In this document: positions 8,348 through 62,641 of the stretch, in pieces | How the letters are laid out: the number at the start of each line of letters is the position of its first letter | Position numbering within the stretch: position 1 is the stretch's first letter | Origin: Bacillota bacterium | Lineage (GTDB): Bacteria; Bacillota; Clostridia; UBA1381; UMGS1253 | DNA: 64,000 bases | Direction of reading: 5' to 3' | Assembly (NCBI GenBank): GCA_022706785.1 | Contig: JAKJBW010000006.1 | Span: 11,306-75,305 of the forward strand | The notes under the pieces: model-generated | What the model saw: only the letters and a program-made list of their open reading frames with translations | The model's database searches: none | Told to the model about the DNA's origin: nothing | Position numbers and translations under genes: made by a program

Positions 8348-8381
8348 ACTATATTTTTGAAGTGTCCGATGGTTATATATA

Positions 8382-8728: not shown

Positions 8729-8741
8729 GTTTTTTAAAGCA

Positions 8742-38190: not shown

Positions 38191-38880
38191 TTACGAATCT
38201 GTCATAGCATCGATGATAATAGCGAGAGTCACCTTGAGCAGGAAGTAAACAGAATCGGATTTGCCGATGCTGGATTTTCCGCTTTGGCGTTTTTTCATCT
38301 TCACAGGGATCTCGCGTATGCGAAGCCTATGCCGCACGGCAATAACAATGGACTCAGGCTCGGGATAGTCCTGCGGGTAGTTAAAAGTGAACAGCCTGAT
38401 AGCGTCTTTATCACAGACCCGAAAGCCCGAGGTCGGGTCGGATATGGAAAGCTTAAAAAAAGTTTTGATCAACGTGTATAAAAACGATATACCCATCCTT
38501 CTCATAAAGGATGATTGAAACCCGTTGCGGTCTATAAAGCGCGAACCGATACAGATGTTATAGCCCTGTTGGAGGACAGGCAGCATGTGGTCAATATAGG
38601 AAGGGTCATGCTGACCGTCGCCGTCCAACTGAACCAGTGCGTCATAGTTGTTGTAGTAAGCATATCTGAAACCTGTCTGCCTGGCTCCGCCTATCCCCAA
38701 ATTGGAAGGCAATTTTATCACCGATACGCCGCGGCTTCGTGACACCGCGTAGGAGTTATCCGTTGAACAATCGTCGATAATCAAAATATCGTATCCGGGA
38801 CAGGTGGCCTTAAGCTCGTCTAAAACTGCGCCGATATTATTTTCTTCATTATACACAGGTATGCATATCAATACTTTCAT
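38191..38880 (-). CDS. Family 2 glycosyltransferase, polyprenol-phosphate sugar synthase-like (DPM1/GtrB/ArnC-type)
   Basis: MKVLICIPVYNEENNIGAVLDEL, ILIIDDCSTDNS, QLDGDGQHDP (DxD region). 229 aa with a short hydrophobic C-terminus. Confidence 0.8.
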   Translation of the reverse strand: MKVLICIPVYNEENNIGAVLDELKATCPGYDILIIDDCSTDNSYAVSRSRGVSVIKLPSNLGIGGARQTGFRYAYYNNYDALVQLDGDGQHDPSYIDHMLPVLQQGYNICIGSRFIDRNGFQSSFMRRMGISFLYTLIKTFFKLSISDPTSGFRVCDKDAIRLFTFNYPQDYPEPESIVIAVRHRLRIREIPVKMKKRQSGKSSIGKSDSVYFLLKVTLAIIIDAMTDS

Positions 38881-39098: not shown

Positions 39099-39824
39099 CT
39101 ATGCGGATACAGAGCTTCTCTGGGCAGCGGGGACGCGCTGAGGTCTTAATGAAATCAGGATGGCAAGCGATACCTTTGTCATAAAATATACCGAAGCGAG
39201 GCTGCTGATGCTGGACTTCCCGCATCCTCTTTCCTGCATGGTAACCGGCAGTTCACAAATAGCCAGATTGTTTTTGGAAGCGGTAACAATGGACTCCGGT
39301 TCGGGATAATCCTGGGGATATTCGGCTGCAAACAGTTTAATAGCCTCTCTGTCACAGGCTCTGAAGCCCGAGGTAGGGTCTGTGATGCTGTTTCCGGTAA
39401 TCATCTTGATCAGGTTATGCAGAAGGGCTATGCCCACCCTGCGCATAAATGACGACTGGAAGCCTTGAAAATTGATAAAGCGGGAGCCTATACAGATATT
39501 GTTGCCCGCCCTTAAGCTGTCAAGCATCCTGCCGATATACTCGGGTTTGTGCTGGCCGTCGCCGTCAATCTGGATCACTGCGTCGTAGTTATTGGCAAGC
39601 GCATATTTAAAGCCTGTCTGACGCGCTCCCCCTATACCGAGGTTGGAAGGCAGCCGTATCACAGCGACATTTTCCCTGCCTGAGCATATCTCATAAGTGG
39701 AGTCGGTGGATCCGTCATCAACAACCAGCACATCATACTGGTGCTCTGACTGCGCCATGCCGTCCAGTACGTTGGCTATGTTTCTTTCTTCATTGTACGC
39801 TGGGATGATAACAAGCACTTTCAT
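39099..39824 (-). CDS. Family 2 glycosyltransferase, paralog of 38191..38880
   Basis: MKVLVIIPAYNEERNIANVLDGM, VLVVDDGSTDST, QIDGDGQHKP. Colinear with the neighbouring GT2 along its full length. Confidence 0.8.
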   Translation of the reverse strand: MKVLVIIPAYNEERNIANVLDGMAQSEHQYDVLVVDDGSTDSTYEICSGRENVAVIRLPSNLGIGGARQTGFKYALANNYDAVIQIDGDGQHKPEYIGRMLDSLRAGNNICIGSRFINFQGFQSSFMRRVGIALLHNLIKMITGNSITDPTSGFRACDREAIKLFAAEYPQDYPEPESIVTASKNNLAICELPVTMQERGCGKSSISSLASVYFMTKVSLAILISLRPQRVPAAQRSSVSA

Positions 39825-42564: not shown

Positions 42565-42633
42565 TCTGGGTTTATTGTGTCACTAAAGACTGCATTTGCG
42601 CGCAAATAACCTTCCCGAAAGGGGGCATTGAGG

Positions 42634-44565
42634 ATGGTCGCCGAAAATTTGAGCATTAAAACCGGGCTGCTGGGACTCAGGAAAGCCGACGTTGACAAAT
42701 ATATTACCGGCATGGTGCAGGAATACAGCACCGTACTGTCCGAAATGCGTAAAGAGCTTGCGTCTTTGGGGACGGAAAAAAAACATCTTTTGGCCGAATT
42801 GCAGCGGGCTAAAGCAGAAGGCCGGCAGGTGGTTTATGAAGAAGAACCCGCGGAAAAAAATGCATTTGCAGAATTGCTTAATTATTCGGACAAAGCGGTC
42901 AGGCGCCTGGACAGGACCATCGCACTGATAAATCAGATAGCCGAGCAAAAGATAGATGATATGGTGCAAAAGGCCGGCGTACAGATGGCTGAGTATGATG
43001 CAAAGCTGGCCCGGCTGGGCGATGAGATTGAGCAGACCCGCGGAAGCGTTGAGAGCCTGCTGGGTGAAGTGGTGGATTTACTTAAAACCAATATAGATGA
43101 AATCATAGGCGAACCGCGGGCGCGCAGCTCTGCAGATACGGCCAAAACGCCCGCATCCCCTTCCAAGACCATAAGAAAGGCCACTGGAAACGCTGAGACC
43201 ACTCCCCCGGCGGAAACAGAAAACGTGGTAAGCCTGTTTGGCGCTGCGGCAGGGGCAAAGCCCAGTCTGACGCTTGTGTCCAAGGAAGTGGAAACGGCAG
43301 TTATCAAAACCCTTGAAACCTACCAAAGCCTCAAGGGCGAATACACCAAAAAACTTGAAAGTATTTTAGCTGGGCCAGGCGATGAAATCAGCGGCGCGGC
43401 ATTGTTTTTTCAGATCAATGAATTCGTTATGACCAACTATTTTTTAAATTGCTCTGCCGACGGGGCTTTGATAAAGGCTATTTCAGACTATATTATGAGT
43501 CTGGATAAGGGTGTGTATGTCGAGCGGCTCTCCTACGACCAGCTTGGCGTGATTTATGACGGCCAGAGCAGCAAAGGCAAAGTCTGCGCGTTTGCCAGCG
43601 ATGTGCTGGCTTATATTCAAAGCGGTATTTTTGTAAACGGCAGGAAAGCGGAGCTGTCCGCCAATGCCGGAATTGCGATGTATTCAAAGAACAGCGCAAG
43701 CGCTGAACTTGTGATAAATTATGCGGGTATCGCACTCTATAAGGCTAAGGAGCGGGGCAAGGGCCTATACCAGTTCGTGGATGACAATCTGATCAGTGAG
43801 GTGGAGTTTGATAACGCGTTAAAAGCGGATTTGCGCAGCGCCATTGATAACAACGAACTGGTATTGTTCTATCAGCCGCAGTATACGGCAAAAACAAAAG
43901 AACTGGCGGGTTTTGAAGCGTTGCTCCGCTGGCAGAACCCCAAGTATTATCAAATGTCGATTGATGATATCATAAAAATAGCGGAGCAGGAAAATCTTAT
44001 CGAGAAAATAGGGCTGTATCTGTTTCGCAAAGCGTGCCTGTTTGCTAAGGAAGTGGGGGCCAGAAGCCAAAAACGCTGCATAATTTCGGTCAACTTTTCG
44101 TCCATACAGATCGCAAATGACAATTTTGTGAATATCATAAAGCGTGTGCTGGGCGAAACGGGCGTGCCGCCCGAGTATTTGGGGCTTGAAATCACCGAGT
44201 CATGCTTTATGGACTGTATAGGCGAAACCTGCCAAAAGCTTAATCAGATCAGAAACATGGGCATTACTATTTCTATCGATGATTTCGGCACAGGCTATTC
44301 CACACTGTCCTATCTGCTCAAGCTGCCTGTGTCGGTGATAAAGATCGACAAAACCTTCCTAGACGAGCTGGAGTCGGGTAAAAAGGCCGAGATATTTGTT
44401 GCGTCTATCATTAATACTGCGCACAATCTTGGGCTTCGCGTGGTAGCCGAAGGGGTTGAAAATGAGCGTCAGATGCAGGTGCTGGCGGAAGCGGGATGCG
44501 ATTACCTGCAGGGGTATTATCTGTCAAAGCCGGTTCCCGAAAACGAGGCATACTTGTATTTATAA
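42634..44565 (+). CDS. DivIVA-motif coiled-coil protein fused to a degenerate GGDEF domain and an EAL phosphodiesterase domain
   Basis: The N-terminal GLLGLRKADVDKYITGMVQEY resembles the DivIVA F-x-GY-x2-EVD-x-F motif and is followed by coiled coil. The GGDEF position reads SYDQL. The EAL domain has intact FEALLRW, EITES, DDFGTGYS and KIDKTF. Start at ATG 42634 after AAGGGGG. Confidence 0.8.
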   Translation: MVAENLSIKTGLLGLRKADVDKYITGMVQEYSTVLSEMRKELASLGTEKKHLLAELQRAKAEGRQVVYEEEPAEKNAFAELLNYSDKAVRRLDRTIALINQIAEQKIDDMVQKAGVQMAEYDAKLARLGDEIEQTRGSVESLLGEVVDLLKTNIDEIIGEPRARSSADTAKTPASPSKTIRKATGNAETTPPAETENVVSLFGAAAGAKPSLTLVSKEVETAVIKTLETYQSLKGEYTKKLESILAGPGDEISGAALFFQINEFVMTNYFLNCSADGALIKAISDYIMSLDKGVYVERLSYDQLGVIYDGQSSKGKVCAFASDVLAYIQSGIFVNGRKAELSANAGIAMYSKNSASAELVINYAGIALYKAKERGKGLYQFVDDNLISEVEFDNALKADLRSAIDNNELVLFYQPQYTAKTKELAGFEALLRWQNPKYYQMSIDDIIKIAEQENLIEKIGLYLFRKACLFAKEVGARSQKRCIISVNFSSIQIANDNFVNIIKRVLGETGVPPEYLGLEITESCFMDCIGETCQKLNQIRNMGITISIDDFGTGYSTLSYLLKLPVSVIKIDKTFLDELESGKKAEIFVASIINTAHNLGLRVVAEGVENERQMQVLAEAGCDYLQGYYLSKPVPENEAYLYL

Positions 44566-44596
44566 AATCAGTTTGAGGTTTGAGGGGTTTTATGTT

Positions 44597-45889
44597 ATGA
44601 TAAAAAAAACGCTGTTTCTTTGCCTGGCATGGGTTCTTTCCATAGGCTGTCCGCTTAGCGGCAGCGTCAGTGCCGCCGATGTCAGCTATATGGAGGAGGC
44701 CAGAGTGTTTTACGATCTCGGCCTTTACAAGGGCGTTTCCGCAGACCACTTTGATCCTGATCTGTTCTCATTTTCGGATAAGGAGACGGCGCTTGTTTTC
44801 CTGCTCAGGCTGGCCGGCCAGCGCGATAACGTACAGGCAAGCAGCGACAGCGGGGCAAACTATACGCTGGGCGCCTACACAGACGGAAGTTCGGTGTCGG
44901 ACTGGGCAAGGAAGCATGTGGCTTACGGGCTGCGGCAAAAGCTGATACCCGATATCTCAAACAATCAGATTTTGCCCAAGCGGCTTTGCGATGGCAAGAC
45001 GTTTACCGCTATCCTGCTTCGCATAATGGGGTATTCATTAGACAACGATTTGTGGGAAATATCCACCTACATAAACAGCTATATAGGCGGGATGACAGCT
45101 GACGACGCCAGGGAGTACGCGGACAAAATCCTGACTAAAAACGATATGATCGCCATTGTGTGGAAATCGCTTTATATTAAAGATAAAAACGGCACCAGCT
45201 TTTTAAGCCGCATTGTCGCAGACAATGGCCTGCAAAAAAGCAGGATGACAGCGTTAGGCTTTACCTATTCGTCCAGCGGGATAACCGCCCCGGCTTTCAG
45301 AAAAACGGCAGTGAATCTTGACAATGTTCAAAACAACAGATATAGTATGCAGGATGGGTCGGCATACTACGGCGAAACTTCCGGCGGCGTCCCCAACGGA
45401 AGAGGCGTTGTGTATTATGCCGACGGGAGCAAGTACGAGGGTTCGGTTGTAGGTGGTATGCGTCATGGAGAAGGCAAGCTGACGCGCAACGATGGCTTTG
45501 TTTATTCGGGCAGTTGGGAAAATGATAAAATGACCGGTTACGCCACCTTAAAATGGCCGAGCGGCGACAGCTATACCGGCAATTTGTACACCGGCTATTT
45601 TCAGGGTTACGGTACCATGGTGTGGGCCAGCGGCGACAGCTATACCGGCAATTGGCGTGAAGGTAAGTTTTCGGGCCAAGGCACCTTCAGATGGGCAAAC
45701 GGAAACTACTATCAGGGCGACTGGAGCGATGGTGAATTTGACGGATACGGTGTGCTTAATATACTGAATTCGGGTATTTATGAGGGGCAGTGGCGCATGG
45801 GTAAAAAGAACGGCCGCGGAAAGTTTGTGTCTGTTGGCAGCACTGTCCAGGAGGGAACATGGGAAAATGACAATTATGTAGGGCCGTAA
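44597..45889 (+). CDS. Secreted protein with SLH-like N-terminal region and C-terminal MORN repeats
   Basis: Signal peptide MIKKTLFLCLAWVLSIGCPLSGSVSA. There are at least seven MORN-type repeats (YxGxxxxGxxxGxGxxxxxxG, for example YEGSVVGGMRHGEGKLT, YTGNWREGKFSGQGTFR). Start moved to 44597 (GAGGGG RBS), which removes the overlap with the EAL gene. Confidence 0.75.
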   Translation: MIKKTLFLCLAWVLSIGCPLSGSVSAADVSYMEEARVFYDLGLYKGVSADHFDPDLFSFSDKETALVFLLRLAGQRDNVQASSDSGANYTLGAYTDGSSVSDWARKHVAYGLRQKLIPDISNNQILPKRLCDGKTFTAILLRIMGYSLDNDLWEISTYINSYIGGMTADDAREYADKILTKNDMIAIVWKSLYIKDKNGTSFLSRIVADNGLQKSRMTALGFTYSSSGITAPAFRKTAVNLDNVQNNRYSMQDGSAYYGETSGGVPNGRGVVYYADGSKYEGSVVGGMRHGEGKLTRNDGFVYSGSWENDKMTGYATLKWPSGDSYTGNLYTGYFQGYGTMVWASGDSYTGNWREGKFSGQGTFRWANGNYYQGDWSDGEFDGYGVLNILNSGIYEGQWRMGKKNGRGKFVSVGSTVQEGTWENDNYVGP

Positions 45890-45913: not shown

Positions 45914-46261
45914 ATGCGGGTTGTGGTGCTTTCTCTCTTAAATGCGATTCTTTTGGTGTCCGGCCAGCTTTTGTGGAAGGCCGGCCTTGCGGGGCGGGAA
46001 TTTAACAGCGCTGAAACAATTGTGAAGGCTATGTTCTCGCCGCTTATCCTAACGGGGCTTTTCATATATGCTGCCGCGACGGTGCTGTGGCTGTATATCC
46101 TTACCCAGGCCGATATCAGCTATGTGTATCCGCTTACCAGTGTGGTTCATATCATTATGCTTTTGGTGGCGCTGTTTATCTTTAAAGAGCATGTGTATCT
46201 TACCAGATGGATAGGCGTTTTTCTCATTACTGCCGGCGTGTGCTTTGTGGGACTCAGATAG
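45914..46261 (+). CDS. Small 4-TM EamA/DMT-type protein (ArnE/ArnF-like lipid-linked sugar flippase candidate)
   Basis: 115 aa with four hydrophobic helices. The pattern LWLYILTQADISYVYPLTS...WIGVFLITAGV is typical of single EamA domains. Confidence 0.6.
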   Translation: MRVVVLSLLNAILLVSGQLLWKAGLAGREFNSAETIVKAMFSPLILTGLFIYAAATVLWLYILTQADISYVYPLTSVVHIIMLLVALFIFKEHVYLTRWIGVFLITAGVCFVGLR

Positions 46262-46329: not shown

Positions 46330-46707
46330 ATGCTTGATCGAAATCTTCAGATTATTTTGCTGATTGTAACGCTTTCATTTTTGGTTTATATAATAAACAT
46401 GGTAAGAAACAAAAAACTGGAGCTTCGCTACATCTTAATCTGGCTCCTTACCGCCGTGGGGCTGCTTGTGATTACCATCCTGCCGGGCGCTATCCATATG
46501 CTGTCGGCTATGCTGCATATTGTGGAGCCGGTAAACACACTGTTTTTGGCAATCATTTTCTTTTTGATTATGATTATTTTTTCACTGACAAAGGAAGTGT
46601 CAAGACACTTTGTGAAAATAGGAACGCTGGTTCAGGAGATTGGGCTTTTGAAGCTTGAAATAGAAGCGCTGAGAAAACAGGTTACGGATAATAGCGAAAG
46701 CAAATAA
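46330..46707 (+). CDS. DUF2304-like small membrane protein
   Basis: 125 aa. The N-terminal TM is followed by VRNKKLELRYILIWLLTAVG, then more TM helices and a C-terminal coiled tail. This matches my recollection of DUF2304 proteins that accompany GT2 genes. Confidence 0.55.
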   Translation: MLDRNLQIILLIVTLSFLVYIINMVRNKKLELRYILIWLLTAVGLLVITILPGAIHMLSAMLHIVEPVNTLFLAIIFFLIMIIFSLTKEVSRHFVKIGTLVQEIGLLKLEIEALRKQVTDNSESK

Positions 46708-46788
46708 ACGGCGGGGCGATAAAGCTATCGCCAGGGTTTTGTTTAATGCGGATGATTTTAGTATGTTTTGCGAGGGGGATCGGGTGGT

Positions 46789-48513
46789 GTGAGTAAAAAT
46801 ATCAAGGTTATGCTGACAACGGAGGGAACCTACCCTTTCCATCAGGGAGGCGTAAGCACTTGGTGTGATATTCTGGTGAACAAGCTGGACAGTGTGGATT
46901 TCGTGCTCTACAGCCTGATGATGAACCCGTTTATCTCGCAGATATTTCCGCTCCCCTCTTCAACGCAGCTTGTCAAGGTGCCGCTGTGGGGCACGGAGGA
47001 ACCGAGCGAATACCTTGAAAGCTCATTTTCGCGGGTGTACCTTTCCAAGCAGAGAACTACCGACGATGTTGTGGAAAAAAAGTTTCTGCCCCTTTTCAAG
47101 GCGCTTATCAGAGAGTTTGTGAGCCTTGAAAAAAATCCTGTGCGGCTTGGCGAAACGCTTTATGCGATGTATCTGTATTTTCAGGAGTATGAGTACAAGA
47201 AAAGCTTTAAATCCGATATCACATGGGCCGAATATAAGCGCCTGATACATGACTTTACTGAGGATGAGGAGAACAAAATAGACAGCCCCAGTGTTTATGC
47301 GCTTATTCAGAGCCTGGGGTGGGTATACAGGTTTATGGTCACGCTAAACACCCCGCTTCCCGAGGCGGATGTGGTGCATTCGGCAGCGGCGGCCTTTTGC
47401 GGGATCCCGTGCGTGCTGTCCAAAATTGAGCGGAAAACACCGTATATGCTCACAGAGCACGGCGTGTATATCAGAGAACAGTATCTGTCGCTGTCCAAGC
47501 GGGGATATCCTTCGTTTTTAAATACATTTTTTATACGCATGATCAACTCGATAATAAGCTTAAATTACGAGTATGCCGACATCGTTTCGCCCGTGTGCAA
47601 ATATAATACGCGCTGGGAACAGCGGTTCGGCGTTGTTAAAGAAAAAATAAATGTCATATACAACGGCGTTGACACCGAAAAGTTTGCTCCGGCTTCGGCC
47701 AAAAAAGTCAAGGATGTGCCCACCGTCGTTTCCATAGCCCGTATAGATCCGCTTAAGGATATTATAACGCTTATCGAAGCCACCGAGCTGGTGGCAAGGG
47801 AAATCCCCGATGTCAGGGTGATTGTGTACGGCTCTGTTTCGGTGGACGATTATTATGAGGAGTGCACACAGAAGGTCAAAAGCCTTGGCCTTGAGGACAC
47901 AGTCATCTTTGCGGGGCACACCAGTGATGTGCCCGCGGCCTATAACAGCGGCGACATTATTGCATCGTCGAGCATTTCGGAGGCGTTTCCGTATTCAGTG
48001 GTGGAGGCTATGATGAGCGGCAAGCCTGTGGTTTCAACCGATGTGGGTGGAATTGCTGAAGCGCTTGGCGACTGCGGGATCCTTGTCACGCCAAGGGCGC
48101 CGGCAGAGCTTGCGGAAGGCATCGTCAAACTGCTGCAGAATCCGGATATGGTGGAAGACATGGGGAAACGCGCCAGGATAAGGGCGCTAGAGCATTTTTC
48201 CATTGAAAAGGTGCTGGAGAACCATTATAATACTTATAATGGACTTATTGCAGGAGATTATCAGCTCAAGAAGACTTTGCCTATTTCACTTTTGCAAAAG
48301 CAGAAGTTTTATGCCGAAAAAGGCTATACCCTTTTGAATATGGGCTATATCAAAGAGGCAATCGAGCAGTTTCGGGAGGCGATCAGCGCATCGCCAAACA
48401 CGCCTACTGTTCCGGTGCTTATGCTTGAAATCGCCAATGCCTATAAGAAAATGGGGGAGCACCAAAAAGCAGATCTTGAAATAGAAAAAATCGGCTATAT
48501 CACAGGCGCGTAA
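46789..48513 (+). CDS. pelF: PelF-like glycosyltransferase (DUF3492 plus GT4) with C-terminal TPR extension
   Basis: The N-terminal MLTTEGTYPFHQGGVSTWCDILV matches the PelF/DUF3492 signature (EGTYPYxxGGVSSW). The GT4 core has SISEAFPYSVVEAMMSGKPVVSTDVGG. The last ~90 aa are TPR-like (YAEKGYTLLNMGYIKEAIEQFREAI...IANAYKKMGEHQKA). The start is GTG 46789 or ATG 46810. Confidence 0.8.
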   Translation: MSKNIKVMLTTEGTYPFHQGGVSTWCDILVNKLDSVDFVLYSLMMNPFISQIFPLPSSTQLVKVPLWGTEEPSEYLESSFSRVYLSKQRTTDDVVEKKFLPLFKALIREFVSLEKNPVRLGETLYAMYLYFQEYEYKKSFKSDITWAEYKRLIHDFTEDEENKIDSPSVYALIQSLGWVYRFMVTLNTPLPEADVVHSAAAAFCGIPCVLSKIERKTPYMLTEHGVYIREQYLSLSKRGYPSFLNTFFIRMINSIISLNYEYADIVSPVCKYNTRWEQRFGVVKEKINVIYNGVDTEKFAPASAKKVKDVPTVVSIARIDPLKDIITLIEATELVAREIPDVRVIVYGSVSVDDYYEECTQKVKSLGLEDTVIFAGHTSDVPAAYNSGDIIASSSISEAFPYSVVEAMMSGKPVVSTDVGGIAEALGDCGILVTPRAPAELAEGIVKLLQNPDMVEDMGKRARIRALEHFSIEKVLENHYNTYNGLIAGDYQLKKTLPISLLQKQKFYAEKGYTLLNMGYIKEAIEQFREAISASPNTPTVPVLMLEIANAYKKMGEHQKADLEIEKIGYITGA

Positions 48514-48622: not shown

Positions 48623-49054
48623 ATGCCGGTTACCGACAGAGTCACATTGTTCGGATACAGTGCTACGGAAGTTGAAAAACGGGTGGAAAAGATAAAAGCG
48701 GAGTTTGAGGAAAAGAAAGCTGAGCTTGAAGCTTCCGTTTCCGAGCTCAAGGCAGAGCTTGAGACGCTCAAAACGCAGATCGAGCATGAAAAAAACAACA
48801 AAAAGGTTGTCGTGAAAAAGCGGGTCGTGCATGCTCAGGGCACTGAAAGCAAGGAACAAAGTGAGATAATGGAGGCGCTCTACAACGCGCATATCAAATC
48901 CACCGAGCGCATTTTGAAGGTGCAGAAGAATATCTCCATGACCTTGGAGAAACGAAAGTCACTCATACTGATCCGTGAACGTAAGGCCAATGAAATGAAA
49001 AATGATTTGCAGAATCTGATAGATTATATCGACTCACTGGCAAAAAGCTACTAG
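48623..49054 (+). CDS. DivIVA-motif coiled-coil protein (short)
   Basis: 143 aa with N-terminal LFGYSATEVEKRVEKIKAEFEEK followed by heptad-rich sequence. GAGGGGGA RBS. Confidence 0.6.
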   Translation: MPVTDRVTLFGYSATEVEKRVEKIKAEFEEKKAELEASVSELKAELETLKTQIEHEKNNKKVVVKKRVVHAQGTESKEQSEIMEALYNAHIKSTERILKVQKNISMTLEKRKSLILIRERKANEMKNDLQNLIDYIDSLAKSY

Positions 49055-49089: not shown

Positions 49090-50193
49090 ATGGCGTCTTT
49101 TGATTTGAATTTTCCTACCAGCTTTTTTGGCCTGAATAAAAAGGATGTACGCAAATGTTTTGAAGAGCTGGAAAAAGAGCAGAAAAAAGTAATGGAAGAG
49201 CTCGAGAAAAAGAAAAAACAGCTGGAACGTGAAGAACAAAAGCTACAGGAAAGCTTGGACGAAGCCCAAAAAGAGATTGTAAAATATGAAGACGAAATCG
49301 TAGAAACTCCTGGTTTGCCAAGCGAGCTTATTAGCGACGCCTATAAAAGGACGGAAAAGACCACGGCGCTGATTAACATGCTGGCCGATGAGGAAGCCGC
49401 ACAGCTCACCAAAAAGGCAAATGAAAAGCTGGCCGAATACGATATCATGCTTGACGAGCTGCAGGAATCCATCAATGAAAATAAAGAGAAGATCGAGGCT
49501 ATACTAAACGATGTGCTCAGTCTTTTGAAGGCCAATGCGGAAAGCGTGATCAAGAAGGATAAAAAGCCCGATTATAAAGACGAGCTTGCCGAGCCGGAGC
49601 TGTCGGGCAAAAAGGTGATTGACCTATTCCGTGAGAAGCTTCAGGAAAACAAGCTTTCGCTTGAAAAAGAGCAGCGGGAGAGAATGACTGCGGACGGCAC
49701 CTCTCTTGACAATATCAACAAGCTGATGATGTTTAAGAAAAAATATGCCTCCCAGAAAGACGAGGAGGATGAAGACGAGCTTGCCGAGGTGCTTATAGGG
49801 AAAAAGAAGCCCAAAGATGAGCTGTATGATCTGCTCAACGGCTATGATGTTGACGATGATGCCTATGAGGAGCGGGCTGCCGTAAGAAAGCCGGCCAAAC
49901 CGGGGCTAGGCGCTATTGACCGGTTTGCGTTTGATGAAACGGAAGAAGAAAGCCCTGCGGCGGGGACGCGGCCTTCCCAAACCGCAGAGGGTGCGCAGGC
50001 CGGCAGTGAAACTGAGATCAAGCAGATGAGAAACACCCTGATTATTGGCAAGATTGCGGGTGAGGACCTTGTCGACAGTGAAAATAACGTGGTGATACCC
50101 AAGGGCAAGGTGCTTTCAGAGGAGGATATTGCTTTGGCTGAGGCGGCTGCAAAGCTGCCGGAGCTGATCATAAATATGGTGCTGCCACAATAA
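49090..50193 (+). CDS. DivIVA-motif coiled-coil protein (long, acidic) with a small C-terminal globular module
   Basis: 367 aa with N-terminal FFGLNKKDVRKCFEELEKEQKK, long E/K-rich coiled coil, an acidic linker, and the C-terminal IIGKIAGEDLVDSENNVVIPKGKVLSEEDIALAEAAAKLPELI. Confidence 0.6.
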   Translation: MASFDLNFPTSFFGLNKKDVRKCFEELEKEQKKVMEELEKKKKQLEREEQKLQESLDEAQKEIVKYEDEIVETPGLPSELISDAYKRTEKTTALINMLADEEAAQLTKKANEKLAEYDIMLDELQESINENKEKIEAILNDVLSLLKANAESVIKKDKKPDYKDELAEPELSGKKVIDLFREKLQENKLSLEKEQRERMTADGTSLDNINKLMMFKKKYASQKDEEDEDELAEVLIGKKKPKDELYDLLNGYDVDDDAYEERAAVRKPAKPGLGAIDRFAFDETEEESPAAGTRPSQTAEGAQAGSETEIKQMRNTLIIGKIAGEDLVDSENNVVIPKGKVLSEEDIALAEAAAKLPELIINMVLPQ

Positions 50194-50206: not shown

Positions 50207-51811
50207 ATGATTCATGCAAACAGCTCGGATAACGCGGGCACGGAAAGCATTTTTAACAGCTTGATAAACGAAGTGACCTCAAAGCAGCTGCACCCCGAAA
50301 ATCACTACGAGGTGGCCGCTATTTTGGAGTCTATCGGTTGGAACGACGAACGGGCCTTTTCGGTGTTCGGTGTCGGCGATATTTTTGAGCTTGCGCTCGA
50401 AATTTTCAATGTCATTAATGAAGATATCAGCTTTTCTTCCTTTGAGGAAGAGGTCAGATACTCGTTCTGGCACAAAAGCAATGTTGTTATAAAAAGCTTT
50501 ATCCGCGGCGTCATTTTCGCTTTGCCCATGGCGCTTTCCGTCCTTTCCATGCTTACGCTGCGCTTTTCTCTGTGGTCGTATGAATATTTGTCGGTAGAGG
50601 TCGCCACCTGTATTGCGATAGGCACAATATTCAGCTTCCTTACAGTTGGCGGATTTATGCAGGCCATCGCGCGCCGCGGATTTTTGTATCTGCGGCAGGG
50701 GTATTACAATCTTGCCCGGAAAATCACATGGTATTTTATACGGCTGGGCTATCTGCTTACGGCAGTGGTGACCCTGGCGTTTCTTATATTTAACCTGATT
50801 TTTGAAGCCTTTCCCTACGATATGATGATGATTATCATCGTCTATTATGTGTTTTTGTGCGCTATCTGGTTTTCGGTTACCGTTATGTACATTCTGGAGC
50901 GGGAATTTACGTTTACCGGCCTTATCGCGGGCGGTATTGTCATTGTGTACGTTTTGTTTGTGCTTCTCAAAATCAATATTATCGTGTCGCAGGTAATTGC
51001 GCTCGGTATTGTGGCGATAGTCGGCATTGCGCTCATTATTCATTTCTTCAGTAAAGAGGAGCGCAAGATGGAAAAGGGTGTTGAGCCCTCATTGCCCAAA
51101 CGGTCCATCACGCTCTATACCACCTTCCCGTTTTTTGCCTACGGTTTTGTGTACTTTGCGTTTTTGTTTGTGGACAGAATCATAGGCTGGTCCACAAACA
51201 ACTCCTACATGCCGTATATCATCTGGTTTAGAGGCGCCTATGAGCTGGGTCTGGACTTTGCGCTGCTGATGCTGATTGTGCCCATGGGGGCGTGCGAGGT
51301 GGTTGTCAGCAATATGATGGATGAACTGGCGGAAAGCCAGAAGAACTCTTTTGGCGTGGATTCGCTCACCATCGACAGCAGATTCTGGCGGCTCTATGTC
51401 AGAAGGCTTTTTGTGGTCGCTGTTATTTCGGTGGTCAGCGCAATTATTACCTATATTGTAGTATGGCTTTTGGAGAACAATCCGCTGCCGGGCTTTAGGA
51501 CAGGCTTTTTATCCAATTATGTGACCAATTTTGTGCTCATTATCGGCTTGATCAGTTATGCCATCGTCGCGGTGTCACTGATGAACTGCGTTACGCTTTT
51601 TTCACTGTCCCAGCCCGAAATGGCAGGCAGGGCGGTGCTGATTTCCCTGGTTGTGAACATTGTCGTGGGTTTTCTGCTCAGCAGGTGGATAAACTATTAT
51701 TATTCGGTATTCGGGCTTTTGGCGGGGTCTATTGTTTTCCTTGTGCTGAGTACCAGAAAGATACTCCAGGTGTTTAGGAATCTGGACTATTACCTTTATT
51801 TCCAATCGTAA
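50207..51811 (+). CDS. 12-TM membrane protein (PelG/MOP-like exporter candidate) with ~95-aa cytoplasmic N-terminal domain
   Basis: 534 aa. I count 12 hydrophobic segments after a soluble N-terminus. The position downstream of the PelF-like gene parallels pelF-pelG. No diagnostic motif recognised. Confidence 0.45.
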   Translation: MIHANSSDNAGTESIFNSLINEVTSKQLHPENHYEVAAILESIGWNDERAFSVFGVGDIFELALEIFNVINEDISFSSFEEEVRYSFWHKSNVVIKSFIRGVIFALPMALSVLSMLTLRFSLWSYEYLSVEVATCIAIGTIFSFLTVGGFMQAIARRGFLYLRQGYYNLARKITWYFIRLGYLLTAVVTLAFLIFNLIFEAFPYDMMMIIIVYYVFLCAIWFSVTVMYILEREFTFTGLIAGGIVIVYVLFVLLKINIIVSQVIALGIVAIVGIALIIHFFSKEERKMEKGVEPSLPKRSITLYTTFPFFAYGFVYFAFLFVDRIIGWSTNNSYMPYIIWFRGAYELGLDFALLMLIVPMGACEVVVSNMMDELAESQKNSFGVDSLTIDSRFWRLYVRRLFVVAVISVVSAIITYIVVWLLENNPLPGFRTGFLSNYVTNFVLIIGLISYAIVAVSLMNCVTLFSLSQPEMAGRAVLISLVVNIVVGFLLSRWINYYYSVFGLLAGSIVFLVLSTRKILQVFRNLDYYLYFQS

Positions 51812-51832: not shown

Positions 51833-53806
51833 TTGACAGGGTTTCATGTTAATATGGGGTTGTATTTTTTAAAATATACGCTTGCATACGGGGCACTGTT
51901 TTTTTTAGTGCCATGCTTTATCTTTACGAATATCAAGCCCGATTTGGTGAAGGGACTGGCAGCCAACTATATCAAAATGACGTTTTGGGTCATTATTTTC
52001 GGCTATATCACAGTGCTTTTGCGGCTGTTTGAGTTTATTACCTTTTTTGCTATCGTTCTTATTGCGATTGCTTACAAATATTATAAAAAGAGCCTGACAG
52101 CAGGTAAAAACCGCGGTTATATCGGGGACGACGTGGGGGTGTTGGTCATCAACCATGTCGACCGTGTTGAGCGTATTGAAAACAAGCTGCTCAAATATAT
52201 TGTCAAAACCCTGCGCGCTATGGGTTCAGACATTTCGGATTATTTCGGCAACCCATGGCTTTTTCTCGGTTTTTTGATGCTTTGCGCCATATTTGGTTAT
52301 GCCGGCTATCTGCACTTTCACGACGCCTTTACCAGCGTAGCGCCCGAAGCGGGCGAGTCGTACCTTACCATGGTGCGTATGAAAAGCTTGGGAAGCCGTG
52401 TGCTGTTTACGGATAACATCTATCCGCAGGGGTTTTATCTTGTGCTTGAAACGCTGCAAAGGATGATGCGGATGGATCATTTGTTTATCGTGCGCTTTAC
52501 AGGCGCCTTTCACACGCTGATAACCGGCTTTGGCATGTATTTCTTTGTTTCAAGGCTGACCAAAAGTCAGACGGGCGGCATGGCGGCTGCTTTGATTTAT
52601 TGTGTTTTGGGCATCAGCTATGCACAGAACGCTTGGTTGCGCAATACGGCCACACCGCTGCAGTTTGCCATGATATTTGTGCTTCCCGTCCTGTTCTTCT
52701 TCTACGAGTACATAAGGCGGTCAAGGCGTGAGGATTTTTTTGCGGCATTTTTCGGGGCTATGGTCATCGGGCTTGTGCACCCGAGCGCGTTTGTCTTTTT
52801 GGCCATCGGCCTTGTCACGCTTTGTGCGGCATGCCTGATACGCGGCGCTTCGGGAATTTTTCATAAGCTGCTGGAGGTTATTGCGTTTGTGGTCATGGCG
52901 ACCGTGATCTCTATGATGCCTGTAGGAATAGGCCTGCTGATGGGCAAAGGCTTTGACGGCGGCATGATAGAATATTTGTTTGCGACGGATTATACCATCA
53001 AAGCGCCGTCTTTGAATCTGTTTGACTATGCGGCGATGGCGGCGATGGTGCTTATTGCGCTTCGGGCGCTGGTCAATATCCGCAACCAGAGCCGTTTCAT
53101 ATCACATTTATGGGTACTGATGCTGGGCGCTGTCTGCCTGGGCGGCTATCTGTATGCGGGAGCCGTTACAAAAAGCGTCTATATAAACGACGGGGCAAGA
53201 ATGATCTGGATGCTGATGCTGCCGGTCGTTGTTGCCTTTGGCGCGGAGGCGGTGTTTGCGGGGCTGAGGCTTTTGCCGTATATGTACTACGCGGGGTATT
53301 TCATCGGCATTGCGGCGCTGATAACCGTGTTTGGCTTTTTTCCTCAGCAGCCTATTACTGCTCAGAAGCAGGAGTATGACAGCACTGTGGCACAATACCT
53401 GCGCATAACCAAAACCTTCAGACCGACACAGTGGATGATTGTATCATGGCAGGAGGAATATGCGCTTTCCCTGAGCAACGGTTTTCATATGATGACGGAC
53501 GATTTTCTAAACCGCTACAGCCCGCATGAGCAAGTGCTTGTGGACAGGACCGGCAATGAGCCGGAAAAGCTGGAAATGCAGGATGTGCTTATCTTTTGCG
53601 AAAAGAGAGCCTACAAATTTCCCGGACAGAGCAGCGACCAGCTGCAATACCGCGGCGATACAGGCCGCCGTGTGAAGGAATGGCTTGTCATCTATCAGGA
53701 AAAGCATGATAACCTGACGCTGTTTTACAGTGACAGAAATTTAGAAATATGGCGCATCCATTATGAGATGAGCGATGAGGAAAGAATAGAGCGTCTTTGG
53801 CAGTGA
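51833..53806 (+). CDS. Large polytopic membrane protein with C-terminal soluble domain (paralog A; GT-C-like candidate)
   Basis: 657 aa. It shares DNIYPQGFYLVLETLQRMMRMDHLFIVRFTG with paralog B (DGVYPYGYEAIISALQKLFFIDPAVIVRFYG) and has a similar C-terminal domain. The start is TTG 51833 or ATG 51854. Confidence 0.5.
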   Translation: MTGFHVNMGLYFLKYTLAYGALFFLVPCFIFTNIKPDLVKGLAANYIKMTFWVIIFGYITVLLRLFEFITFFAIVLIAIAYKYYKKSLTAGKNRGYIGDDVGVLVINHVDRVERIENKLLKYIVKTLRAMGSDISDYFGNPWLFLGFLMLCAIFGYAGYLHFHDAFTSVAPEAGESYLTMVRMKSLGSRVLFTDNIYPQGFYLVLETLQRMMRMDHLFIVRFTGAFHTLITGFGMYFFVSRLTKSQTGGMAAALIYCVLGISYAQNAWLRNTATPLQFAMIFVLPVLFFFYEYIRRSRREDFFAAFFGAMVIGLVHPSAFVFLAIGLVTLCAACLIRGASGIFHKLLEVIAFVVMATVISMMPVGIGLLMGKGFDGGMIEYLFATDYTIKAPSLNLFDYAAMAAMVLIALRALVNIRNQSRFISHLWVLMLGAVCLGGYLYAGAVTKSVYINDGARMIWMLMLPVVVAFGAEAVFAGLRLLPYMYYAGYFIGIAALITVFGFFPQQPITAQKQEYDSTVAQYLRITKTFRPTQWMIVSWQEEYALSLSNGFHMMTDDFLNRYSPHEQVLVDRTGNEPEKLEMQDVLIFCEKRAYKFPGQSSDQLQYRGDTGRRVKEWLVIYQEKHDNLTLFYSDRNLEIWRIHYEMSDEERIERLWQ

Positions 53807-53905
53807 TCCTGCCCGCAGCGCCGACCGCCGGGGCAGGACAGTACAGCAAGACGTGCAGCACGAAGAAGGCCACAATACGCCGCAGGCATGAAAGGGGGCG
53901 CAGGC

Positions 53906-55984
53906 ATGTTTCCCATACAGCACACACTGTTTTTGTTAATCAAAGTGCTGCTGGCTTTTGGCATTTTATATATTTTCCTTCCGTCCAGACTGACCGTGTT
54001 TGATGAGCATGGTGATGACTGGACAGACAAAGTCATGGTGTCTATGACCCATTCGCATGTTATTATCATCATCCTGGTGCACCTTTTGGTGGTATTGCGG
54101 ATATATGAAACGATTTCTTTGTTTATCGCCATTATCGCGCTGACGATATTCATCATATCCCTGCGCGCAAAAAGAGCCAGACAGGAGACGGAGGAAAAGC
54201 GCAGTGCGTTTTCCCTGCTGCTGGACGTGGTGGATGGCAGACTGGGCAACAAGACGCAGCGAAGGCAGAAGCTGTCTGAATATTTAAAGAAAGCGCCTGC
54301 GGCACTTATGCGCGGGATAACACATGCCTTTATCCATCCGTTCGACGGGGTGATACTGTTTGCCCTGTTTGGGGTGGCTGCGGCAATAAGGTTTAGCCAT
54401 GCGATGCAATACCTCTACTATGGCGCCTCCGACTGCTACGTTCACCTTGCGTGGGCAAAGTATCTGGGTGTTAATAAGCTTTATTATGACGGTGTTTATC
54501 CTTATGGATACGAGGCCATCATATCGGCGCTGCAAAAGCTTTTCTTTATCGATCCGGCTGTGATTGTGCGGTTTTACGGCGGCATAGGCAGTATGCTGAT
54601 TGTATTTTCCATTTTCTATATTTTAAGAAAGAATATGAAGGGCAAATATATTCTGATTTTCGCAGGTGTTGCGGCGTATGTGTTGGGCACCGAGCTGCCC
54701 AACGAAACCAACAACATCTGGCGTCAGCTGTCCGCGCTGCCGCAGGAGTATGCCGCCGCATTTGTACTGCCGGGCATACATTTCCTCAACGTGTTCTTCA
54801 ACACGGGCAGGAGGCGGTATCTCGCACTGGCGGCTGAGGTTCTGGCAATCACGGTGTTCATCCACTTTTATGCTGCCGCGTTCTTGGGTATCGGTTACGC
54901 TTTTTTGACCTTGTTTCACTTTGGCAAGCTGTTTCGGGGCAAGACATTGCCGCGACTCATTGGATATCTTGGCTTTGGCGGTGCGATAGGCATTTTGCCT
55001 ATTGCGGTAGCGCTCGGGCTGGGCATGAAATTCCACCAGCTGTCCCTAGGCTTCGTTGCAGAAAGCGCTACCGTTTCAACAGCGCTTGACTGGCATACCG
55101 AGATTTTCCGCTACAGGGAAGTTGACCCCACGCTAAAGCTGGTTTTGTTTTGCGCTTTGGCAGTAGCGGTTTATACAGCCCTGCGGGCGTTTTTCAAAAA
55201 AAGCCCGGCATACGCCTCAGCGGCTCCGTTGACGCTTACCATTGCCGCGATGAGTGTATTGTCCTATACTCAGGTCCGCGCTGAGTATATCGGCTTTCCG
55301 TCGCTGCTTGAGTTTTCCAGGGCCAGCACATTCTTCGGTTTTGTGGCTGTGGCGCTGCTTGCCTTGACCATCTATCTTCTGGTCGAGTTTCTGCCCGTTC
55401 ACAAGCTGGTCAAGTATGTTGCCGGGTTTGGTATGAGCGCCTTTGTGCTCATGACTGTGTTCCAGCCGCAAAATTATGCCGTGATGCAGCCTACAGGGGC
55501 AAAGCTTGAGTATGATGAAGCCGCCTACGCGTACTATAAAATAAAAGAGGATTTTCCCATCTTAAACTGGACCATCATCTCGCCGGTTGAACAGTATCAG
55601 CAGAGCATGGGCTACGGATGGCACTACAACCTGTGGGAATTTGTTAAGGACATCCAGATAGACAAGAAGGAAGAGGTATCCTTTCCCACCGATTATGTCT
55701 TCGTGATTGTGGAAAAAAAGCCGCTGAATCAAGCCAAGCCGTATACCGAGATGCCCGAAATTACAACGGAGGATGCGTCACAGCCGTTTCCGGATATGTC
55801 AGGCTCTCCGGAAAAATACTACACCATCTATGAAAACCGCAGAGTCATTGAGGCGAAGGCATATTATTGGATGGAGGAATACATGGGGACAAAGGGTAAC
55901 TTTGCGGTTTACTGGGAAGATGATAAACTTAAAATATATATGTTGAAGCAGGATGGAACAGAGCCGGTCAATCTGGCGCAATGA
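53906..55984 (+). CDS. Large polytopic membrane protein with C-terminal soluble domain (paralog B)
   Basis: About 692 aa from ATG 53906 (AAGGGGG RBS). It is colinear with paralog A, including the C-terminal W-x-I-I-S...EK-K/R block. Confidence 0.5.
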   Translation: MFPIQHTLFLLIKVLLAFGILYIFLPSRLTVFDEHGDDWTDKVMVSMTHSHVIIIILVHLLVVLRIYETISLFIAIIALTIFIISLRAKRARQETEEKRSAFSLLLDVVDGRLGNKTQRRQKLSEYLKKAPAALMRGITHAFIHPFDGVILFALFGVAAAIRFSHAMQYLYYGASDCYVHLAWAKYLGVNKLYYDGVYPYGYEAIISALQKLFFIDPAVIVRFYGGIGSMLIVFSIFYILRKNMKGKYILIFAGVAAYVLGTELPNETNNIWRQLSALPQEYAAAFVLPGIHFLNVFFNTGRRRYLALAAEVLAITVFIHFYAAAFLGIGYAFLTLFHFGKLFRGKTLPRLIGYLGFGGAIGILPIAVALGLGMKFHQLSLGFVAESATVSTALDWHTEIFRYREVDPTLKLVLFCALAVAVYTALRAFFKKSPAYASAAPLTLTIAAMSVLSYTQVRAEYIGFPSLLEFSRASTFFGFVAVALLALTIYLLVEFLPVHKLVKYVAGFGMSAFVLMTVFQPQNYAVMQPTGAKLEYDEAAYAYYKIKEDFPILNWTIISPVEQYQQSMGYGWHYNLWEFVKDIQIDKKEEVSFPTDYVFVIVEKKPLNQAKPYTEMPEITTEDASQPFPDMSGSPEKYYTIYENRRVIEAKAYYWMEEYMGTKGNFAVYWEDDKLKIYMLKQDGTEPVNLAQ

Positions 55985-57853: not shown

Positions 57854-58633
57854 TTGCGCAGAGAAAACCGACTGCATGGAATTAAAAATTTTACTGTTTA
57901 CTATGGATACGGCAAAGAAGACCAGCTGGCAAGCTATGACCTTTTGGTTTTGGAGCCTAAGGCACGCATGCCGCAGGATATTTATGCGCTTAAACGTACA
58001 GGCAGCACAGTTGTCGCGTATTTAAGCGCGGTGGAGGTAAGCAGCGACGACGAGCTTTTTAGCGCGCTTGGCGAAGAAGACATCCTGCGTTCTAAAGACG
58101 ATCCTCTTATCAACAAGGAATACGGCACACATTATATGGATATTGCTTCGCCCAAGGTGCAGAATCTGCTGCTCTATCGTGTGGAGGATATTTTGAAAAG
58201 CGGCTATGACGGCATTTTCCTCGACACACTCGACGATATTGAATATTTAAATATTTCCCGGGAAAAGCAAAAGGCTATGCTTGCGGGCGCAGGCCGGGTC
58301 GCCAAGGAAATCAGGCGGCTGTTTGCCGATTCGGTTTTAGTGCAGAACAATGGCCTTTTGCAGGTATGTGACTATACTCATGCTTATATAGACGCCATAT
58401 GCTTTGAGAACCCACCGTATAAAACCTGGGGCGGCCTTGTTTGGACAGCAAGCGCCCTTGCCAGGGCAGGACGGCTGCGCAGGGATTTTGGCATACAGCT
58501 TTTGTTGCTGCATGGGCTTTGTGCAAATGATAACAATGTCAAAAACCGTATTTCCCGTTATGTGCTGAAGCATTTTGCAAAGCTCAGGGGCTATTTGTAC
58601 TATGAAACCGGCAGTCATTATAATCGCATCTGA
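57854..58633 (+). CDS. GH114 / TM1410-family TIM-barrel glycoside hydrolase-like protein (PelA-hydrolase/endo-alpha-1,4-polygalactosaminidase-like)
   Basis: SYDLLVLEP...TVVAYLSAVEV...GYDGIFLDTLDDIEY matches the family pattern (DLVVID..AYLSxGE..GFDGVxLDxVD). TTG start. No signal peptide is visible. Confidence 0.65.
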   Translation: MRRENRLHGIKNFTVYYGYGKEDQLASYDLLVLEPKARMPQDIYALKRTGSTVVAYLSAVEVSSDDELFSALGEEDILRSKDDPLINKEYGTHYMDIASPKVQNLLLYRVEDILKSGYDGIFLDTLDDIEYLNISREKQKAMLAGAGRVAKEIRRLFADSVLVQNNGLLQVCDYTHAYIDAICFENPPYKTWGGLVWTASALARAGRLRRDFGIQLLLLHGLCANDNNVKNRISRYVLKHFAKLRGYLYYETGSHYNRI

Positions 58634-58691: not shown

Positions 58692-58996
58692 GGTTGTACC
58701 CGGCACTGACGGTGAGGTAATCGCTTATGGAAAAGGTGTTTTTCGATATTTCGGTTGCGGTGCGGCGCCGGTTGTGATAAAATGAAAAACAATCCGGAAT
58801 ATGTGATACTGTTCCCAAATAAAATCATAGGCTAAAACTTGTCTTTTTTCCGTCTGACTGCGTCAAAGAACCATCGGCAATAAACAAATTATTGCCGAGA
58901 ACTTTTTTCTTGTCATATAAAAAAATCCGGCGTTTTATTTGTCTATTCTTTTATTTAGGAACAGTATAATATATCAGAAAATGTGGGTAAATATAA

Positions 58997-62311: not shown

Positions 62312-62641
62312 ATGAAGCTGATTTTTGCAATAGTTCATGATGAAGACGGGAATAAGGTAATGAGTGAGTTGAATAAACAGGGCTTCAGTGTGACAAAGCT
62401 TGCTACAACGGGAGGATTTTTGAAGGCGGGGAATATGACGCTGCTTGTGGGGACAAGTGAGCAAAACGTTCAGACGGTGGTGGATATTATAAAATCCAAG
62501 AGCGAAACCAGAAAGCAGATCATATCGACACCTGTGCCCATGTCCGGGCTGGGCAGCGGGTATACGCCGTACCCGGTCGAGGTGGAGGTCGGCGGCGCTA
62601 CCATTTTTGTTATTGATGTGGAAAGGTTTGAAAAGGTATAA
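62312..62641 (+). CDS. darA: Cyclic-di-AMP receptor protein DarA (PstA/YaaQ, PII-like)
   Basis: MKLIFAIVHDEDG...TKLATTGGFLKAGNMTLL...YPVEVEVGGATIFV closely follows B. subtilis YaaQ/DarA. Conserved darA-holB-yaaT order. Confidence 0.9.
   Translation: MKLIFAIVHDEDGNKVMSELNKQGFSVTKLATTGGFLKAGNMTLLVGTSEQNVQTVVDIIKSKSETRKQIISTPVPMSGLGSGYTPYPVEVEVGGATIFVIDVERFEKV

Follow-up and report, generated by a model that had tools for sequence, protein, structure and literature searches.

Paralogous GT-C-fold membrane proteins linked to a Pel-like exopolysaccharide cluster in a Bacillota bacterium

Two large membrane proteins encoded side by side in a Bacillota bacterium raise the question of what a pair of unnamed polytopic paralogs does among the genes of an exopolysaccharide pathway. 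The pair, here termed A and B, lies in a stretch of 64,000 nucleotides (contig JAKJBW010000006.1 of assembly GCA_022706785.1, positions 11,306 to 75,305), which is referred to as the window. An earlier sequence-only reading likened the two proteins to glycosyltransferases of the GT-C class and placed them in a scheme in which a GT2 enzyme, a flippase and a GT-C transferase hand on a polyprenol-linked sugar. The analysis described here assigns A and B with high confidence to a family with a predicted GT-C fold that is linked to a PelF/PelG gene cluster. The wider scheme, in which they provide the extracytoplasmic transferase step of a transmembrane glycosylation module within a Pel-like operon, is favoured with moderate confidence.

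The A and B paralogs and their predicted fold

51833..53806, plus strand: paralog A, 657 amino acids (aa), TTG start, A-type member of an unnamed family with a predicted GT-C fold
53888..55984, plus strand: paralog B, 698 aa, B-type member of the same family

The two proteins are colinear and share 24% identity over their full length (BLASTP, E=4e-34), a paralogy far beyond chance which bears out what the sequence-only reading had claimed for these neighbours. The motifs that it had picked out are also found in both sequences: the loop block reads DNIYPQGFY...LQR...D..IVRFTG in A and DGVYPYGYE...LQK...D..IVRFYG in B, the C-terminal motif is WMIVS...EKR in A and WTIIS...EKK in B, and the acidic-x-Tyr element takes the form GESY in A and SDCY in B. 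Database proteins that are identical over the shared residues begin 7 residues (A) and 6 residues (B) later than the open reading frames (ORFs) given above.

AlphaFold2 models of A and B were built from an alignment of 27 sequences and reached a pLDDT of 86.6 and a pTM of 0.86 for B, and a pLDDT of 86.3 and a pTM of 0.87 for A. Both comprise about 14 membrane helices followed by an alpha/beta domain, in keeping with the polytopic build and the soluble C-terminal domain of about 150 aa that had been described from the sequence. When the models were compared with the PDB by Foldseek, all matches at E<=1e-3, 19 per model, were GT-C enzymes, namely STT3 (yeast and human), PglB, AglB, DPY19, AftA and ArnT. 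The top 25 PDB matches of B are all GT-C enzymes, with STT3 as the best at E=1e-6, and EmbA/B, AftD, AftB and Pmt1/2/4 follow further down the lists, where GT-C matches still have a probability of about 1.0. The first non-GT-C matches are MFS-type transporters with probabilities below 0.25. Both models retrieve GT-C enzymes at high probability, and the earlier likeness to this class is upheld at the level of structure; A and B are accordingly modelled as GT-C-fold proteins.

From the modelled helices and the distribution of basic residues, the chain would run from three N-terminal transmembrane helices through a basic cytoplasmic linker (residues ~93-150 of B), one further transmembrane helix, an outer loop and ten transmembrane helices to an outer C-terminal alpha/beta domain. 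The K/R counts of the loops place this domain on the outer side in both A and B. The putative outer loop opens with a conserved 'SD', whose aspartate is D182 in B, and holds two short helices and an invariant Y-P-x-G. D182 is conserved as D in 98% of B-type proteins and as D in 90% and E in 8% of A-type proteins, and in the B model it stands directly after a transmembrane helix and ahead of the two short loop helices. The catalytic aspartate of GT-C enzymes sits at such a position, at the start of the loop that follows a transmembrane helix, which makes D182 a candidate counterpart of this residue.

At the sequence level the same kinship went undetected. A and B have no Pfam or NCBIfam match at E<=0.01, and a comparison by hidden Markov models (HMMs) with GT-C sequence families, through which the sequence-only reading might have gained support, gave no significant match for A, B or 27 relatives. 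The models for PMT/PMT_2, ArnT, YfhO, STT3, GT87 and the like match none of these 27 relatives at E<=1, and a sequence profile search of the PDB with the family alignment was empty.

A family of two types with a polar signature

An exhaustive profile search recovers 1506 cluster representatives of the A/B family (50% identity) at E<=1e-3 and 748 at E<=1e-30. Word-indexed searches return 18 relatives for B and 12 for A, all of which are unnamed or labelled 'hypothetical'. When 220 members were scored against an A-type and a B-type HMM, the scores were bimodal and divided the family into 121 A-type and 99 B-type proteins; A and B therefore go back to an old duplication. Pfam DUF6541 (PF20176) gives weak matches in 6 of the 27 relatives, all under the gathering threshold of 29 bits (the best is P0015 with 28.0 bits, E=8.9e-7, over residues 192-424), and no match in A and B of the window. 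A literature search found no papers for DUF6541 and none for DUF3492 combined with GT-C. Judged by these searches, the family is new at the sequence level, with an unusual N-terminal extension and an ancient paralog pair that is wired to a synthase-type exopolysaccharide pathway.

Both types have in common a signature of 17 polar residues, which in B numbering are E74, R168, D182, W189, K191, Y204, D222, R279, Q280, E287, H326, R478, E568, H579, K610, R651 and W661. All 17 lie in loops or at helix ends on the face opposite the K/R-rich loops, that is on the predicted outer face according to the modelled helices and K/R counts, and most A and B copies carry the full set. B of the window is intact (17/17). 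A of the window carries R168H, D182E, W189R, R279L, Q280R, E287Q and R478G (B numbering), of which the L-R at 279/280 may reflect an alignment shift of one residue, and it was counted as degenerate at 6/17 positions.

This decay is shared by the A copies of the window's clade (P0019-P0023 and those of loci L007, L008, L010, L012, L044 and L046; L numbers refer to the comparison loci introduced below), which have 5 to 7 signature substitutions, as against 0 in their cognate B copies. The A copies of this clade also diverge faster, with 43-47% identity to their nearest relatives versus 59-65% for B. Because they have lost several family-invariant residues, they are probably either altered in specificity or non-catalytic partners, and B is the predicted active transferase. 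Elsewhere in the family, L038 and L077 have no GT2 gene in reach and hold A/B copies with 7-8 signature substitutions, and L083, L084 and L086 have a degenerate B (9-12 substitutions) next to A copies that also carry 5-6. The coincidence of degenerate copies with the missing GT2 in L038 and L077 ties the signature to a GT2-dependent activity, and it is inferred that the signature serves a catalytic function which depends on the GT2 enzyme. The same pattern suggests that A and B may also do something that does not require catalysis, the simplest possibility being that they join each other and PelG in one complex.

The sequence-only reading had named a third protein of the same general build at 24242..26305. 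Its description as a polytopic protein with a soluble C-terminal part stands, but homology to A and B is not detectable (hhalign probability 0.7%), and with no PDB sequence match and a weak TgpA_N match as the sole other hit it was rejected as a third family member. It is never the best match in the 42 comparison loci (L001-L042, including two duplicate contigs). This protein has 687 aa and about 10 transmembrane helices, with the motif 'FWDISGYW' in its first loop and some 300 aa of soluble sequence at its C-terminal end; it is encoded between two MFS genes and could be a different membrane enzyme.

The Pel-like operon and its putative donor module

A and B are embedded in a run of genes from 45914 to 58633 that are tightly packed on one strand and closed by a hairpin. 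The cluster as a whole, with its flanking genes at the head, comprises the following features besides A and B.

42628..44565, plus strand: GGDEF-EAL protein at the head of the cluster, kept in the window's clade, probably a cyclic di-GMP (c-di-GMP) input
44456..45889, plus strand: MORN-repeat protein between the GGDEF-EAL gene and the glycosylation genes, kept in the window's clade
45914..46261, plus strand: EamA/ArnE-like protein with four transmembrane helices, candidate polyprenyl-phosphate-sugar flippase (Pfam EamA; NCBIfam ArnE at E=3e-8, below cutoff)
46330..46707, plus strand: small DUF2304 membrane protein of the GacJ/Rv3632 type (Pfam 83.1 bits against a cutoff of 25.5)
46768..48513, plus strand: PelF homolog with DUF3492, GT4 and C-terminal TPR, cytoplasmic polymerising glycosyltransferase
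48623..49054, plus strand: coiled-coil protein of 143 aa with no transmembrane helix, present in the window's clade, with weak counterparts in a few loci elsewhere (7/40)
49090..50193, plus strand: coiled-coil protein of 367 aa with a weak DivIVA-like match, directly 5' of PelG in nearly all loci
50207..51811, plus strand: divergent PelG-like polytopic protein of 534 aa
55981..57843, plus strand: degenerate HD-GYP protein of 620 aa with one N-terminal transmembrane helix (Pfam HD_5, E=4e-31)
57854..58633, plus strand: GH114 glycoside hydrolase, PelA-hydrolase-like, last gene of the operon (Pfam 45 bits against a cutoff of 27)
58874..58898, no strand assigned: hairpin with a 10-bp stem and T tracts on both strands, a probable terminator of the operon

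The cluster is a Pel-like exopolysaccharide operon. The PelF homolog scores 154.6 bits with NCBIfam PelF (NF038011; cutoff 100) and matches Pfam DUF3492 at E=1e-36. The 534-aa protein reaches only E=0.14 and 11.5 bits with Pfam PelG (cutoff 29), but 10 of 16 of its orthologs match that model, the best at E=6.2e-14, which identifies it as a divergent PelG. At its N-terminus it bears an additional conserved domain, cytoplasmic and about 90 aa long (50207..50500; PEDxYEVAAILESxGWND...), and the Pfam PelG match begins near residue 101, outside this domain. Since A and B are embedded in a PelF/PelG operon, the Pel-like polymer is a candidate acceptor of the sugar that they would transfer.

No PelD (transmembrane segment, GAF and degenerate GGDEF) or PelE was found in the cluster, and the coiled-coil and degenerate HD-GYP proteins stand in their places. 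The HD-GYP domain of the 620-aa protein is without its defining metal ligands: in all 11 aligned sequences of its family (the window and 10 orthologs) Ser stands in place of the first His, and 'SNIG(I/V)' in place of 'HDIGK'; the alignment also took in two proteins with H and HD motifs, one encoded at 37415..38161 of the window and one in L002. The family keeps HHERxDGxGYP, which is followed by a Cys-rich tail (CWxMxC...IC..CPAY). Judging from these replacements, the 620-aa protein looks like a candidate non-catalytic c-di-GMP receptor in place of PelD.

Some details of the cluster are recorded here in their own right. The gene upstream of GH114 stops 10 bp before the GH114 start, and in relatives a second MORN/Big_2 gene follows GH114. 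The GGDEF-EAL and MORN ORFs, which stand at the head of the cluster in the window's clade only, share 110 bp as called; the TTG start assigned to the MORN gene probably lies too far upstream. Other genes of the window concerned with cyclic dinucleotides lie at 12422..13312 (a GGDEF protein), 14273..16282 (a c-di-AMP phosphodiesterase of the GdpP type) and 62312..62641 (a DarA-like c-di-AMP receptor).

For comparison, 36 genome loci were collected through B-type sequences; a further 48, from metagenomes, were retrieved with the PelG-like protein as sole query. The loci were annotated by phmmer and HMMs built from the window, L001 and L002. A set of 40 non-redundant loci (L001-L042 minus the two duplicate contigs) includes five contexts from individual homologs. 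The gene order that recurs across Clostridia, Peptococcaceae, Paenibacillus, Gorillibacterium and Bacillales is PelF, (small coiled-coil), coiled-coil, PelG-like, A, B, [ATP-grasp, polysaccharide deacetylase, MurJ/Wzx-type], GT2, DUF2304, HD-GYP and GH114. In the set seeded with PelG, which carries no bias as to A and B, an A/B-type gene lies directly 3' of PelG in 26 of the 27 loci with at least 1.5 kb downstream. Within 10 kb a GT2 gene is present in 28/40 and a DUF2304 gene in 22/40 of the non-redundant loci, counts that are limited by the many contigs among them that end early. GH114 is present in 22/40, Polysacc_deac_1 in 19/40 and MORN genes in 6/40 loci.

A MurJ/Wzx-type gene occurs in 17/40 related loci, and some loci have neither this nor the ArnE-like candidate flippase. 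Whether such paralogs occur apart from GT2 and flippase genes had been posed as a check on the sequence-only reading; the GT2 and DUF2304 counts, together with the frequent presence of a MurJ/Wzx or ArnE-like candidate, favour the association. The order varies to A-GT2-DUF2304-B in L002, L013, L027 and L085, and L002, like its sister contig L031, has two GT2-DUF2304 pairs. Most loci outside the window's clade hold an ATP-grasp ligase, a polysaccharide deacetylase and a MurJ-type flippase between B and GT2 (L002 12064..17824; also L005, L006, L013, L018, L026, L028 and L032), a module which is absent from the window and suggests deacetylation followed by ATP-dependent acylation of an amino sugar.

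The window's GT2 genes lie outside the operon.

38191..38880, minus strand: short GT2 protein of 229 aa, probably a polyprenyl-phosphate sugar synthase (Pfam Glycos_transf_2)
39099..39824, minus strand: second short GT2 protein of 241 aa (Pfam Glycos_transf_2)

These two paralogs are 63% and 62% identical, respectively, to the in-operon GT2 of L001 and 62% identical to each other, and their best NCBIfam matches are AglJ, PpgS, PgfS, ArnC and dolichyl-P-hexose transferase, all below the equivalog cutoffs. They are located about 6 kb upstream of the first conserved gene of the operon and on the opposite strand. In L008 the order is EamA-GT2-DUF2304, and elsewhere GT2 directly precedes DUF2304; in the window the EamA-like and DUF2304 genes are 68 bp apart. 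L044, the metagenomic locus nearest to the window, shares this EamA-DUF2304 junction and likewise has a GT2 upstream on the other strand, which points to a stable rearrangement; an assembly artefact as the cause of the missing in-operon GT2 was rejected on this ground. The GT2 paralogs adjoin a gene for a 248-aa HD-GYP protein that keeps its HD motif, and in relatives this gene lies just downstream of the operon.

The GT2 pair, the EamA-like protein with four transmembrane helices and the DUF2304 protein named by the sequence-only reading are all confirmed by Pfam, and the EamA-like protein shares 32% identity over 59 aa with E. coli ArnE (BLASTP, E=2e-8). Two characterised members of the DUF2304 family act with a lipid-sugar synthase: GacJ binds and stimulates GacI, the undecaprenyl-phosphate N-acetylglucosamine (GlcNAc) synthase, and Rv3632 stimulates PpgS, a polyprenyl-phosphate N-acetylgalactosamine (GalNAc) synthase (bioRxiv 10.1101/180810). 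In these systems the GT-C enzymes GacL and Rv3779 then transfer the sugar outside the membrane, and the Wzx-type GacK is the proposed flippase (bioRxiv 10.1101/180810). As the DUF2304 protein of the window belongs to the GacJ/Rv3632 family, the proposed logic of lipid-sugar synthase, flippase and GT-C transferase is supported, but it fits this type better than the CsbB/GtcA/YfhO and Arn systems to which it had been likened.

Proposed mechanism, rival explanations and related systems

It is proposed that the cytoplasmic GT4 enzyme PelF and the PelG-like protein would synthesise and export a Pel-like polymer, with the GGDEF-EAL protein and the degenerate HD-GYP protein exerting control through c-di-GMP. 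A short GT2 and its DUF2304 partner would load undecaprenyl phosphate with a monosaccharide, possibly an N-acetylhexosamine, and the lipid-sugar would be flipped by the ArnE-like candidate here and by MurJ/Wzx-type proteins in most relatives. B, with its polar residues on the outer face, would then attach the sugar to the polymer as it emerges beside PelG, and A would be its obligatory paralogous partner, probably in a heterodimer. On the best reading the whole would resemble a module of the GacIJKL or PpgS-Rv3779 kind attached to a Pel-like synthase.

Several observations weigh against this transferase scheme. The TM-scores of the models to solved GT-C enzymes are modest (0.35-0.45, with a root-mean-square deviation above 10 A), which makes A and B distant members of the fold class. 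No sequence-level link between A or B and characterised GT-C families appears in Pfam or NCBIfam, and E. coli ArnT against the family profile is not significant (hhalign, probability 12.6%). The window's operon is without its own GT2. There is no deacetylase in the operon or among the window ORFs scanned, and the GH114 protein has neither an N-terminal hydrophobic segment nor a signal peptide. A and B are more tightly linked to PelG than to GT2 and DUF2304, and degenerate copies have been retained, which suggests a role beyond, or instead of, sugar transfer.

In such a role A and B could belong to the core of the PelG export machine, as structural or assembly components, and serve as a GT-C-derived channel or scaffold, an extracellular polymerase or a wall ligase. 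This explanation is considered unlikely. It would account for the A/B-type gene that follows PelG almost invariably, a linkage tighter than that of GT2 or DUF2304, and for the retention of copies with 5 to 12 substitutions (A of the window's clade; L038 and L077; B of L083, L084 and L086), which implies a function independent of the signature residues. The polymer-assembly enzymes AftA, EmbB and AftD are moreover among the fold matches, and Emb/Aft enzymes extend chains from polyprenyl-phosphate sugars. Most A and B copies nevertheless keep the 17 polar outer-face residues, pointing to catalysis, GT2 and DUF2304 give the monosaccharide donor that is typical of side-chain addition, and a polymerase is already present in the form of PelF. 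A more elaborate version, to which a similarly low probability is attached, holds that PelG, A and B form a hybrid exopolysaccharide assembly machine in which the GT-C paralogs are obligatory for the emergence of the polymer, one subunit repeatedly decays to a pseudo-enzyme scaffold and the degenerate HD-GYP protein replaces PelD; export-coupled co-translocational branching, extracellular chain extension and ligation to the wall are examples of what this machine might do.

It is improbable that A and B glycosylate protein, be it by O-, C- or N-linkage in the manner of PMT, DPY19, STT3 or PgfM-type enzymes, with MORN-repeat/Big_2 or S-layer/SLH proteins as targets. The best structural matches are indeed oligosaccharyltransferases and DPY19, the GT2s resemble AglJ and PgfS of protein glycosylation pathways, MORN proteins flank the operon in the window's clade and SLH proteins are encoded in the window. 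The rarity of MORN genes contrasts, however, with the presence of PelF and PelG in most loci with upstream coverage, no phosphoglycosyl transferase-like gene, the starter of diphosphate-linked oligosaccharide donors, is found among the window ORFs scanned against Pfam, and GH114 and the deacetylase of the relatives point to a polysaccharide substrate. The large surface proteins encoded on the minus strand at 605..11846 and 28595..30007 (one with SLH and SASA esterase, one with SLH and GH5 cellulase, an adhesin with SdrD-B and NHL repeats, and one that is SLH/cadherin-like) would be possible alternative acceptors if A and B acted on proteins. Least probable is that A and B are transporters or unrelated membrane proteins whose likeness to GT-C enzymes is a modelling artefact: the missing sequence matches to known GT-C families and TM-scores of only about 0.4 would be in line with it, but two independently built models retrieve GT-C enzymes alone at probability 1.0, acidic and basic residues are conserved on the outer face, and genes for lipid-sugar synthases consistently co-occur.

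Pel ranks among the most widespread polysaccharides of biofilms, and the role of PelG is poorly understood. No description of a lipid-carrier-dependent extracytoplasmic glycosylation step in the Pel pathway was found in the searchable papers. The cluster described here is a conserved Firmicute variant in which an unannotated GT-C family is joined to the PelF/PelG pathway and a donor module like GacI/GacJ. If the transferase scheme is true, it would add a new GT-C family with about 1500 representatives at 50% identity, the sampled members of which are all 'hypothetical', as well as a new class of branched or modified Pel-like polymers. It would also offer a naturally occurring range of GT-C paralogs, from catalytic to degenerate, with which enzymatic and structural roles could be told apart, and the culturable carriers Paenibacillus thermotolerans, P. 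darwinianus and Gorillibacterium make the model testable.

Two known systems come closest in function. GacI/GacJ/GacK/GacL of Streptococcus pyogenes, which adds the GlcNAc side chain of the group A carbohydrate, likewise combines a short GT2, a DUF2304 protein, a flippase and a polytopic GT-C enzyme to decorate a polysaccharide outside the cell. In most related loci a MurJ/Wzx-type gene lies directly 5' of GT2-DUF2304, like GacK, whereas the window carries the ArnE-like protein instead of a Wzx-type flippase. The Gac acceptor is an ABC-transporter-dependent rhamnan, in contrast to the PelF/PelG-type synthase found here, and Gac has one GT-C enzyme as opposed to two paralogs, whose likeness to GacL is one of fold class and context. 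PpgS (Rv3631), Rv3632 and Rv3779 of Mycobacterium tuberculosis, which place galactosamine (GalN) on arabinogalactan, offer a second parallel. The GT2s of the window match NCBIfam PpgS with 79-97 bits, below the cutoff, and the DUF2304 protein corresponds to Rv3632, although the acceptor differs and the parallel to Rv3779 is one of proposed role. A polyprenyl-phosphate-GalNAc donor, by analogy with PpgS, would fit a Pel-like GalNAc/GalN polymer and the deacetylase of the relatives.

CsbB/GtcA/YfhO and ArnC/ArnEF/ArnT have the common logic of a GT2 lipid-sugar synthase, a small flippase and a GT-C transferase. The four-helix protein of the window resembles ArnE, and the fold matches of A include ArnT (5f15; E=8e-4), yet the Pfam and NCBIfam models for YfhO, PMT and ArnT match neither A nor B. 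The GT2s here are also short (~230 aa) and usually paired with DUF2304 in related loci, unlike CsbB and ArnC, which are longer and have C-terminal transmembrane helices of their own. The closest solved structures, STT3/PglB/AglB and DPY19, have the same GT-C architecture with a C-terminal extracytoplasmic domain and align with A and B over ~650-700 columns at E 1e-6 to 1e-4, with 8-15% identity and a TM-score of ~0.4. Compared with the STT3/PglB class, A and B appear to be extended by three N-terminal transmembrane helices and, ahead of the conserved loop, a basic cytoplasmic linker. Their genomic context speaks for a polysaccharide as acceptor and a monosaccharide as donor.

The pelDEA(DA)FG operon of Bacillus cereus (Whitfield et al. 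2020; PMC7112168) has PelF, PelG (divergent here), GH114, c-di-GMP-linked regulation and a deacetylase (found here in relatives) in common with the cluster. It differs by its PelD (GAF-GGDEF) and PelE, in place of which the cluster described here has coiled-coil proteins, the degenerate HD-GYP protein and the A/B pair with GT2/DUF2304. A term search of that paper finds neither GT-C nor DUF2304, and the accessory genes in the passages retrieved are different. The Pmt1-Pmt2 and EmbA-EmbB heterodimers, finally, are likewise anciently duplicated GT-C paralogs that are encoded together. Although an interaction between A and B is purely inferred, the recurrent one-sided loss of invariant residues would fit an obligate pair of the Pmt1-Pmt2 or EmbA-EmbB kind.

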